Program-made: the position numbers and the translations under genes
Shown: piece after piece, positions 18,839-19,950 of the stretch
Position numbering within the stretch: position 1 is the stretch's first letter
How the letters are laid out: every line of letters starts with the position of its first letter
Notes under the pieces: generated by a model
What the model saw: the letters and a program-made list of their open reading frames with translations, nothing else
Told to the model about the DNA's origin: nothing
Databases searched by the model: none
DNA from: Candidatus Oxydemutatoraceae bacterium
GTDB lineage: Bacteria; Pseudomonadota; Gammaproteobacteria; Poriferisulfidales; Oxydemutatoraceae
Assembly: GCA_965220085.1 (NCBI GenBank)
Contig: CBDCOZ010000003.1
Span: 782,979 to 846,978 of the forward strand
DNA: 64,000 bases
Direction: 5' to 3'

Positions 18839-19725
18839 TGCGAGTATTCCGCCCCTTCCCGCATTGGTGGGCGATACTAACTCGGCTTAGTCTCCGGTCA
18901 CTTATCCTGCCGGCGCTGTGTCTGGCATTGGGCGCAACTTATGTTTGGGCCCAGGCGACAGATCAGAGCATTGATGTCCCGATAGGCGGCAGCGCCTATA
19001 CAATCACGGCTGCCGACTTTGGCTTTGATGATATTATCAATACTGGAGCCGTCAATACGAGTATGACGGTCGGGTCTTTGCCTGCTCTCGGCAACTTACG
19101 GCGATACAGAAATGGGCAGACTGCAAATTTACATGTGGGGAGCCTGACAGACGGTAACTCGAATGTAAGTCTTTTCTTAGAGACATTTCTTGGCGGCGCC
19201 GACTCCGACGACAGGTTGGATTATACGCCTCCTGCCGATGCCGTTTCCGTTGCCGCCGGCTATGCCAGCTTTGCCTTTTATATTTCCACTGATGGCATTA
19301 CCTCTACGCTGGCCACCATGACCATCAACCTGGTGGGGGCATCTACGCCGACGGCCGCCACCGGCGCACCCACAATCGCCGCCACGGACACGCACCGAAT
19401 CAGAGCTTCCATTACCGGTGTGACGGACCTCAACGGCATTGATGTCGGCACCCTGAGTTGGCAGTGGCAACAGGCCGATGCCCCCGTCAGTGGCGTTCCC
19501 GAAACCGGTGAGTACAGCGAGATAAAGGATGCTACTTCTTCCTCCCTCTTCGCACCGACTGCCGCCCAACTGGGCAGGTATGTGCGCGCCTGCGTTTCTT
19601 TCAAGGATCAGTCTCCCACGCCCGCATCGGAAGGGCCGCTGTGCAGCGTCGGCACTGAGGTGGAAGAGTTGCCGCCTGATATACGCTTGCGGCTGCGCCT
19701 CTTCCTGGAGGGCCCCCTGCGATAG
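18835..19725 (+). CDS. family member C5
   Basis: same as C2; its C-terminal half diverges slightly (GTEVEELPPDIRLRLRLFLEGPLR). Confidence 0.8.
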   Translation: MMRVFRPFPHWWAILTRLSLRSLILPALCLALGATYVWAQATDQSIDVPIGGSAYTITAADFGFDDIINTGAVNTSMTVGSLPALGNLRRYRNGQTANLHVGSLTDGNSNVSLFLETFLGGADSDDRLDYTPPADAVSVAAGYASFAFYISTDGITSTLATMTINLVGASTPTAATGAPTIAATDTHRIRASITGVTDLNGIDVGTLSWQWQQADAPVSGVPETGEYSEIKDATSSSLFAPTAAQLGRYVRACVSFKDQSPTPASEGPLCSVGTEVEELPPDIRLRLRLFLEGPLR

Positions 19726-19950
19726 CGCGGGCAATGCCCCTCGCGGGAGAGTCGGCGATCTATGCTATGCCGTTGCGATAGCGCGGGCAATGCCCCTCGC
19801 GGGAGAGTCGGCGATCTATGCTATGCCGTTGCGATAGCGCGGGCAATGCCCCTCGCGGGAGAGTCGGCGATCTATGCTATGCCGTTGCGATAGCGCGGGC
19901 AATGCCCCTCGCGGGAGAGTCGGCGATCTATGCCATGCCGTTGCGATAGC
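19719..19950. repeat. 56 bp tandem repeat x4 (CGATAGCGCGGGCAATGCCCCTCGCGGGAGAGTCGGCGATCTATGCTATGCCGTTG) straight after the array; each unit ends GCCGTTGCGATAG, mimicking the gene terminus ...CCCCTGCGATAG
   Basis: period-56 copies at 19719, 19775, 19831 and 19887; decay at 19943. Confidence 0.85.

Follow-up and report, generated by a model that had tools for sequence, protein, structure and literature searches.

A tandem array of 56-nt units behind a five-gene array is probably a young minisatellite that starts in the last codons of a gene

The DNA analyzed here, referred to as the window, is a stretch of 64,000 nucleotides (nt) from a Candidatus Oxydemutatoraceae bacterium (contig CBDCOZ010000003.1, positions 782,979 to 846,978 of the forward strand). 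It holds five paralogous genes, C1 to C5 (the C array), arranged head to tail with ATGA stop/start overlaps, and the last of them runs into a tandem array of 56-nt units that lies ahead of galU. This 56-nt array and its relation to the end of C5 are the subject of this study. The features concerned are given below in window coordinates, R denoting a 10-nt direct repeat.

15291..19725, + strand: C array, genes C1 to C5
15291 (ATG) with body 15419..16183, + strand: C1
16180..17064, + strand: C2
17061..17960, + strand: C3
17957..18838, + strand: C4
18835..19725, + strand: C5, last of the five paralogs (open reading frame [ORF] and translation)
19718..19951, + strand: 56-nt tandem array, 4 full units and a 10-nt partial fifth (Tandem Repeats Finder, unit listing)
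19718, 19774, 19830, and 19886, + strand: starts of the 56-nt units (unit listing)
19718..19727, + strand: left R copy, TGCGATAGCG, made of the last 5 coding nt of C5, its TAG stop (19723-19725), and the nt that follow
19942..19951, + strand: right R copy, TGCGATAGCG, which is the partial fifth unit (sequence and array geometry)
20193..21107, + strand: galU, the next gene downstream of the array, with a promoter-like site at 20055-20084

An initial annotation of the window had described four 56-bp tandem repeats after the C array. Tandem Repeats Finder confirmed them at 19718-19951 (period of 56, 4.2 copies, 99% matches, score of 461), and a second, independent repeat finder returned the identical register (repeat family D5). 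The head-to-tail copying is far above what chance would give: units 1 to 3 are identical, and unit 4 differs by a single T>C at 19934, so that the sole unit variant sits in an edge unit. The geometry of the array is (R+X)x4+R, where R is TGCGATAGCG (10 nt) and X is 46 nt long, for a length of 4x56+10, and the direct repeat R is thus present at both boundaries. The string found at each unit junction, GCCGTTGCGATAG, occurs exactly four times, at 19769, 19825, 19881, and 19937. As had been annotated, the first unit spans the stop codon of C5, the TAG at 19723-19725. Since this stop lies in unit 1 and the period is not divisible by 3, C5 stays the same at any copy number, and because unit 1 keeps C5 intact, the duplication is tolerated.

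The left R copy holds the last codons and the stop of C5, so the stop region is bound to recur in every unit, and the re-creation of a gene terminus in each unit, which the initial annotation had pointed out, is a matter of geometry. Indeed, unrelated housekeeping genes in the window show it too (see below). The units do open with sequence shared with the gene end, as proposed, but the shared stretch measures 8 nt (TGCGATAG) rather than 9, the preceding base being C in C5 and T in the units. Apart from the terminus of gene A, another member of the family, we found no further copies of the 56-nt unit in the window (only chance matches of ≤12 nt), and the unit was not found in the metagenome contigs searched.

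We propose that the array is probably a young, selectively neutral minisatellite, i.e., a tandem duplication of the variable-number tandem repeat (VNTR) type, in the C5-galU spacer. Bacterial intergenic minisatellites are the VNTR loci used in multiple-locus VNTR analysis (MLVA) typing. The 56-nt array resembles them in its head-to-tail units of tens of nt, its near-identical copies with a variant in an edge unit, the short direct repeat at both ends, its location in a spacer, and the flanking coding sequence that it leaves unaffected. It differs from them in that its left boundary lies inside coding sequence and in that its host genome has an exceptional density of arrays.

Bacterial short-junction tandem duplications arise between direct repeats of about 10 nt, and they expand and contract by unequal exchange. 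In the mechanism that we envision, the ancestral sequence would have contained TGCGATAGCG twice, 56 nt apart, one copy being the stop region of C5 and the other following it after 46 nt. The segment between the two R copies would have been duplicated when they underwent replication slippage or an unequal exchange of sister strands, and later unequal exchange between 56-nt units would have brought the count to four. The lineage would make or retain tandem duplications at an unusually high rate, and selection would act as a filter, such that only duplications starting in spacers or at the extreme 3' end of a gene survive. Since R stands at both ends of the array and one copy is the stop region of C5, the gene end of C5 very probably served as the anchor for slippage or unequal exchange. 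The initial annotation had seen in the conserved gene end a recombination or slippage anchor; the slippage part of that proposal is supported by the 10-nt repeat at both array ends, whereas the part that makes it a DNA-level recombination signal is not.

The window possibly comes from a long-read assembly, in which an assembler might have wrongly multiplied a single 56-nt segment. However, over 11.2 kb the window is matched at 100% identity by a Logan short-read contig from the same strain (L001), whose end falls exactly 30 nt before the unit-4 variant at 19934. A k=31 graph must break at this point if T-type and C-type units coexist, so independent reads contain at least two unit types. In addition, several other arrays of the window hold internal variants in higher-order patterns, which artifacts do not produce. 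An assembly artifact is thus highly improbable, and these comparisons indicate that the 56-nt repeat is real.

The position of the array, between galU and an operon that would be phase variable and that has no recognizable intrinsic terminator, raised the question of a function. The units could form a cis element that tunes galU or a stabilizer or processing site in the 3' untranslated region of the C-operon mRNA, or they could each encode a short ORF, MPLAGESAIYAMPLR, as an ATG...TAG frame of 15 codons, with PLR before the stop, can be read in every unit. Secondary structure was not above that of shuffled sequences: the RNA fold of the whole array was worse than the shuffles (z = +2.69), and the DNA fold of a single unit gave z = 0.18 and 0.14 on either strand. 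The array contains no inverted repeats and no promoter-like or terminator-like sites, the sole promoter-like site for galU (20055-20084) lies beyond it, and no ribosome-binding-like sequence precedes the ATG of the mini-ORF. Rfam gave 0 matches at the gathering score in the whole window. The absence of the unit from the rest of the window and from the metagenome contigs also speaks against a functional repeat, as does the near-perfect identity of the units, which points to a recent expansion and not to a long-conserved element. We consider a functional repeat quite improbable. An intrinsic-terminator array, a REP-like palindromic array, and a structured RNA were each rejected for want of any hairpin, inverted repeat, terminator-like site, or Rfam match.

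As a positive control, we used an array that follows a comEA-like gene at 14549-14767. It consists of five tandem units of 41 to 45 nt, each forming a strong GC hairpin with a T run after it. These are terminator-like hairpins with a unit fold of z = -5.7, and the region scanned held 7 terminator-like sites, five of them inside the 41-nt array, versus 1.2 expected. Since the same tools readily recognized this array, such a function in the 56-nt array would have been detected. Together, these analyses of the sequence indicate that the 56-nt array is without detectable function of its own.

Tandem arrays that take in gene ends occur elsewhere in the window at genes outside the family, and a duplicated piece of a gene end follows gene A.

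55330..55874, no strand assigned: array of 182 nt x3, covering the 3' ends of a redoxin gene (+, last 65 nt) and a DUF2063 gene (-, last 108 nt)
58511..59434, no strand assigned: array of 156 nt x5.9, covering the 3' ends of a WaaP-like kinase gene (+, last 63 nt) and waaA (-, last 96 nt)
5816..5848, + strand: exact 33-nt copy of gene A codons 5659-5691, 56 nt after the gene A stop

The 182-nt and 156-nt arrays are near perfect, and each covers the 3' ends of two convergent housekeeping genes. As at C5, an intact gene end is kept at each edge and pseudo-termini are present in every unit; in the 156-nt array, the unit variants alternate at a higher-order period of 312 nt. A 33-bp duplicate of the 3' region of gene A had also been annotated and proved to be exact, at 5659-5691 and 5816-5848, the earlier coordinates being off by one. 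This copy is probably what remains of a tandem duplication of 157 nt at the gene end. Farther into the spacer after gene A, 6019-6054 and 6085-6120 form a local duplication of 36 nt, 97% identical and 66 nt apart. The spacer between truB and gene A contains a decayed family of 49-nt repeats (3436-3763) whose units end in CGATAGGC, as well as a terminus-like GCGCGATAGCGC at 3755-3766; these repeats may represent an array like the 56-nt one that is older and has eroded.

We then compared array densities by counting arrays with a period of ≥30 nt and a score of ≥100. The window has 7.8 such arrays per 100 kb, versus 0.22 in control proteobacterial loci (902 kb) and 18 in the contigs of a relative (ENA ERZ25072196; low-coverage contigs L002, L083, and L084), which places the window at about 35 times the density of the control loci. 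Given this enrichment and the identical gene-end geometry at nonfamily genes, the phenomenon is generic. In a literature search, we found no relevant work on tandem duplications of gene ends between convergent genes in bacteria.

Several points weigh against reading the 56-nt array as a young and neutral minisatellite. We infer the slippage mechanism from the sequence, and likewise the neutrality and the recency of the array, on which the reading depends. Copy-number polymorphism is the hallmark of a VNTR, and the array is known from one strain, to which the sole hit of a galU look-up for other strains also belongs. An effect of the array on read-through from the C operon or on galU expression may exist within what sequence analysis allows. 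Moreover, a 10-nt direct repeat at a distance of 56 nt is unlikely by chance (on the order of 1e-4 per locus), and the microhomology at the ends of the 182-nt and 156-nt arrays is ≤3 nt. For these two reasons the right R copy needs explaining, most simply as a relic of a family terminus; it may have come from the end of another family gene. This possibility calls for a description of the family.

4173..5760, + strand: gene A, family member (ATG at 4173, C20 tract at 4201-4220, body 4321..5760, terminus CCGTTGCGATAGCGCG at 5749-5764)
51346..53094: E1, first gene of the E pair, C22 tract at 51371-51392
53099..54457: E2, second gene of the E pair
15325..15351, + strand: C27 homopolymer in 5' coding sequence of C1, between the start codon and the signal peptide
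14973..15000, + strand: promoter-like site of the C array (TTGCAA, 16 nt, TG-TATAGT)
3946-3973 and 51113-51140: homologous promoter-like sites of gene A and of the E array, respectively
4064-4082, 15100-15122, 15218-15240, and 51236-51260: copies of a leader palindrome
14891..14980, + strand: module upstream of the C array, combining terminus-like sequence, a spacer, and a promoter (alignment)
3747-3830, 51018-51120, and 54444-54525: other copies of the module, the last being a decayed spacer-promoter copy after the E2 stop

The conserved end of the family genes is a 12-residue peptide tail, LRLRLFLEGPLR, which is predicted to be disordered. We compared the last 14 codons of gene A, the C genes, and E2 and found 5 to 8 synonymous differences between subfamilies with 0 to 1 amino acid changes, the longest identical run of terminus DNA between subfamilies being 8 to 14 nt. 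The conserved terminus had been put forward as a DNA signal, but a terminus in which 5 to 8 of 14 codons differ synonymously is conserved as a peptide, and its DNA is too short and too variable to anchor homologous recombination across the family. At the DNA level, the short sequence TAGCGCG is conserved at or after the family stop.

It is against this background that the right R copy has to be considered. Together with the GCCGT that precedes it, the right R (19942-19951) makes up a terminus-like string. This second terminus-like string, GCCGTTGCGATAGCG, could be the remnant of a family gene or module that once followed C5; gene ends would then be preferred breakpoints for deletions, duplications, and exchanges, the array would be one product of such events, and its pseudo-termini might provide extra 3' homology. 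In favor of this proposal, the 16-mer junction CCGTTGCGATAGCGCG matches the terminus of gene A at 16/16 positions (5749-5764) and that of E2 at 15/16 (54446-54461), while the end of C5 itself differs. The same trend is seen in the 13-nt mimic of the terminus that the initial annotation had assigned to the units, which agrees with the end of gene A at 12/13 positions but with C5's own end, CCCCCTGCGATAG, at only 10/13. However, just ∼4 nt (CCGT) of the junction-gene A match are independent of C5's own sequence (p roughly 0.01, post hoc).

The arrangement of the family loci also supports an origin from a relic. Terminus-like sequence and a conserved spacer precede the promoter at all three family loci of the window, and around 51000 there is a clear remnant of decayed coding sequence, LRLRLFLQDPCNN. 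The module copies were recovered by nhmmer with E values of 1e-15 to 1e-20 using a model built from these same four copies, and the anchored pairwise positive controls gave p<0.0003. As the module is found before all three loci and, in decayed form, after the E2 stop, family modules were once arranged head to tail. In contrast, the 46-nt part of the unit shows no significant similarity to the sequences that follow family termini or begin family genes. The whole unit was rejected as a copy of the family post-terminus spacer/promoter module, since nhmmer matched the terminus part only (E = 1.5). The idea that the unit is the collapsed ghost of a sixth gene was not supported either, the best local alignment being no better than shuffles (p ∼0.63); an anchored test of the 46-nt part was marginal (p ∼0.03, uncorrected), versus p<0.0003 for the positive controls.

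The C genes are mosaics, which agrees with exchange between family members: C3 shares its first ∼180 nt with C5 and its last ∼330 nt with both C4 and C2, in each case at 100% identity. The breakpoints in C2 to C5, however, are internal to the genes and not at their termini, although homology between array units stops exactly at the stop codon. The core GCGATAG is enriched in the window, with 26 sites versus 9.4 ± 3.0 expected (∼20 once tandem copies are collapsed), and 4 of the 26 cluster in 3436-3763. The longer motif GCGATAG(C/G)CG, annotated earlier as a mark of the repeats, does occur at 3562, 3665, and five other sites but is not found in the 56-nt units, which read GCGATAGCGC. Finally, identical terminus runs of 8 to 14 nt are below what RecA-type exchange needs, and the same gene-end array geometry exists at housekeeping genes outside the family. 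On balance, we regard a family relic or recombination anchor as an unlikely origin of the array.

The initial annotation had further suggested cassette boundaries like those of silent pilin genes. In pilE/pilS antigenic variation of Neisseria, a conserved 3' Sma/Cla repeat is present at all pil loci. The family in the window resembles this system as a multigene family with a conserved 3' end, a variable center, recombination between copies, and TAGCGCG after the stop. It lacks promoterless truncated copies, its genes having either a promoter of their own with a poly-C switch or translational coupling; its 3' end is conserved as a peptide, while synonymous sites change freely; and it has no single expression locus, on/off control presumably being by homopolymer slippage. 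Thus, of the features of a pilS-like system, mosaic variants were found, whereas promoterless truncated copies and a shared DNA flanking repeat were not. C2 to C5 each have an ATG start, a signal peptide, and an ATGA overlap with the previous stop, and since all five array genes are complete, the pilS-like reading fails. Overall, the earlier interpretation is partly supported.

The genes around the repeat resemble contingency genes. Surface-protein genes of Campylobacter, Neisseria, and Haemophilus are contingency genes with poly-G/C tracts. In gene A, C1, and E1, tracts of C20, C27, and C22, respectively, lie in the 5' coding region between the ATG and the signal peptide, and the length of the tract sets the reading frame. 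As assembled, gene A is out of frame, C1 is out of frame (OFF; 15419-15291 = 128 = 3x42+2), and E1 is in frame. The single C27 tract would switch the whole translationally coupled five-gene array. The likeness to homopolymer contingency families, namely C20 to C27 tracts in the 5' coding region, expression set by frame, and a large secreted family, concerns these genes and not the 56-nt repeat itself; the differences are the unusually long tracts, the control of a five-gene array by one tract, and the 12-residue tail. E1 loses its family-like sequence in about the last third and lacks the conserved tail, which suggests a frameshift, either of a pseudogene or from a consensus error. The promoter-like sites of the three loci consist of TTGCAA or TGCACA, 16 nt, and TG-TATAGT. 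A palindrome, CACAAACAAC...GTTGTTTGTG, is conserved between promoter-like site and start codon in the leader of each of the three loci; it could be an operator or an RNA hairpin.

C5 had no Pfam or NCBIfam match, C2 had no Pfam match, and gene A gave only subthreshold ZirU and cadherin-like matches in NCBIfam and Pfam. An AlphaFold2 model of C5 (mean pLDDT of 73.7, with the tail below 50) has Ig/cadherin folds among its structural neighbors. It predicts a signal helix, as expected of a secreted protein, then two beta-sandwiches of the Ig/cadherin type, and disorder in the LRLRLFLEGPLR tail. A protein search returned 56 relatives (P0001-P0056), ∼45 of them on one contig of 2,046,636 bp and the rest on a handful of others. 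Nearly all 56 end in ...LRLRLFLEGPLR, and many open with Pro runs read from poly-C tracts. The tail motif LFLEGPL was in no paper among the literature searched. From these protein sequences, the family is predicted to comprise 45 or more poly-C phase-variable, Ig/cadherin-like secreted proteins in one 2.05-Mb genome.

The relative's contigs point to a possible source of the family. At its loci (L002, L083, and L084), passenger-type domains with poly-C upstream are fused to PF03797 beta-barrels, as in type Va autotransporters, and the N termini of the family resemble extended signal peptides. The members in the window differ in having no barrel and in ending after the 12-residue tail: PF03797 was found only at the relative's loci, and the tail motif is absent from the relative. 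The family appears to derive from autotransporter passengers. We did not find it in JGI metagenomes or in 185,579 species-representative genomes. Among the latter, GalU reaches at most ∼58% identity, the matches being mixed gamma- and betaproteobacterial metagenome-assembled genomes that include sponge-associated lineages. The window contains no Neisseriaceae DNA uptake sequences. By the genome comparisons, the source lineage appears isolated, without close sequenced relatives.

Two further readings emerged from the analysis, and we hold them, taken jointly, to be rather improbable. In the first, the family would consist of mobile or exchangeable modules (spacer, promoter, poly-C, one or more genes, and terminus) bounded by termini, with a terminus-like relic on the left and a true terminus on the right at all three loci. 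If the modules are mobile, their exchange would have left the 56-nt array of pseudo-termini as a by-product or would use it as a landing pad, and if such cassette exchange is real, other family genes are expected to be joined at GTTGCGATAG junctions. In the second, a directed process, beyond a mere selection filter, may give rise to tandem duplications at the 3' ends of genes, above all where two genes converge; breakage and template switching at transcription-replication or supercoiling collisions are a possible cause.

Read as an ordinary minisatellite, the 56-nt repeat is at most a strain-typing marker, and what makes it valuable is that it draws attention to two features of the genome around it. 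This genome tolerates or generates tandem duplications at ∼35 times the level of the comparison loci, several of them overlapping the ends of essential genes, and it devotes 45 or more genes to a poly-C-switched, Ig/cadherin-like secreted family with a strictly conserved, undescribed 12-residue tail. If the exchange of terminus-bounded modules proves false, the locus is a cautionary example, in that a duplication starting in the last codons of a gene automatically re-creates its terminus. If such exchange is active, it would be a new route to surface variation, and mobile modules would give an uncultured lineage a cassette system for its repertoire of 45 adhesins.

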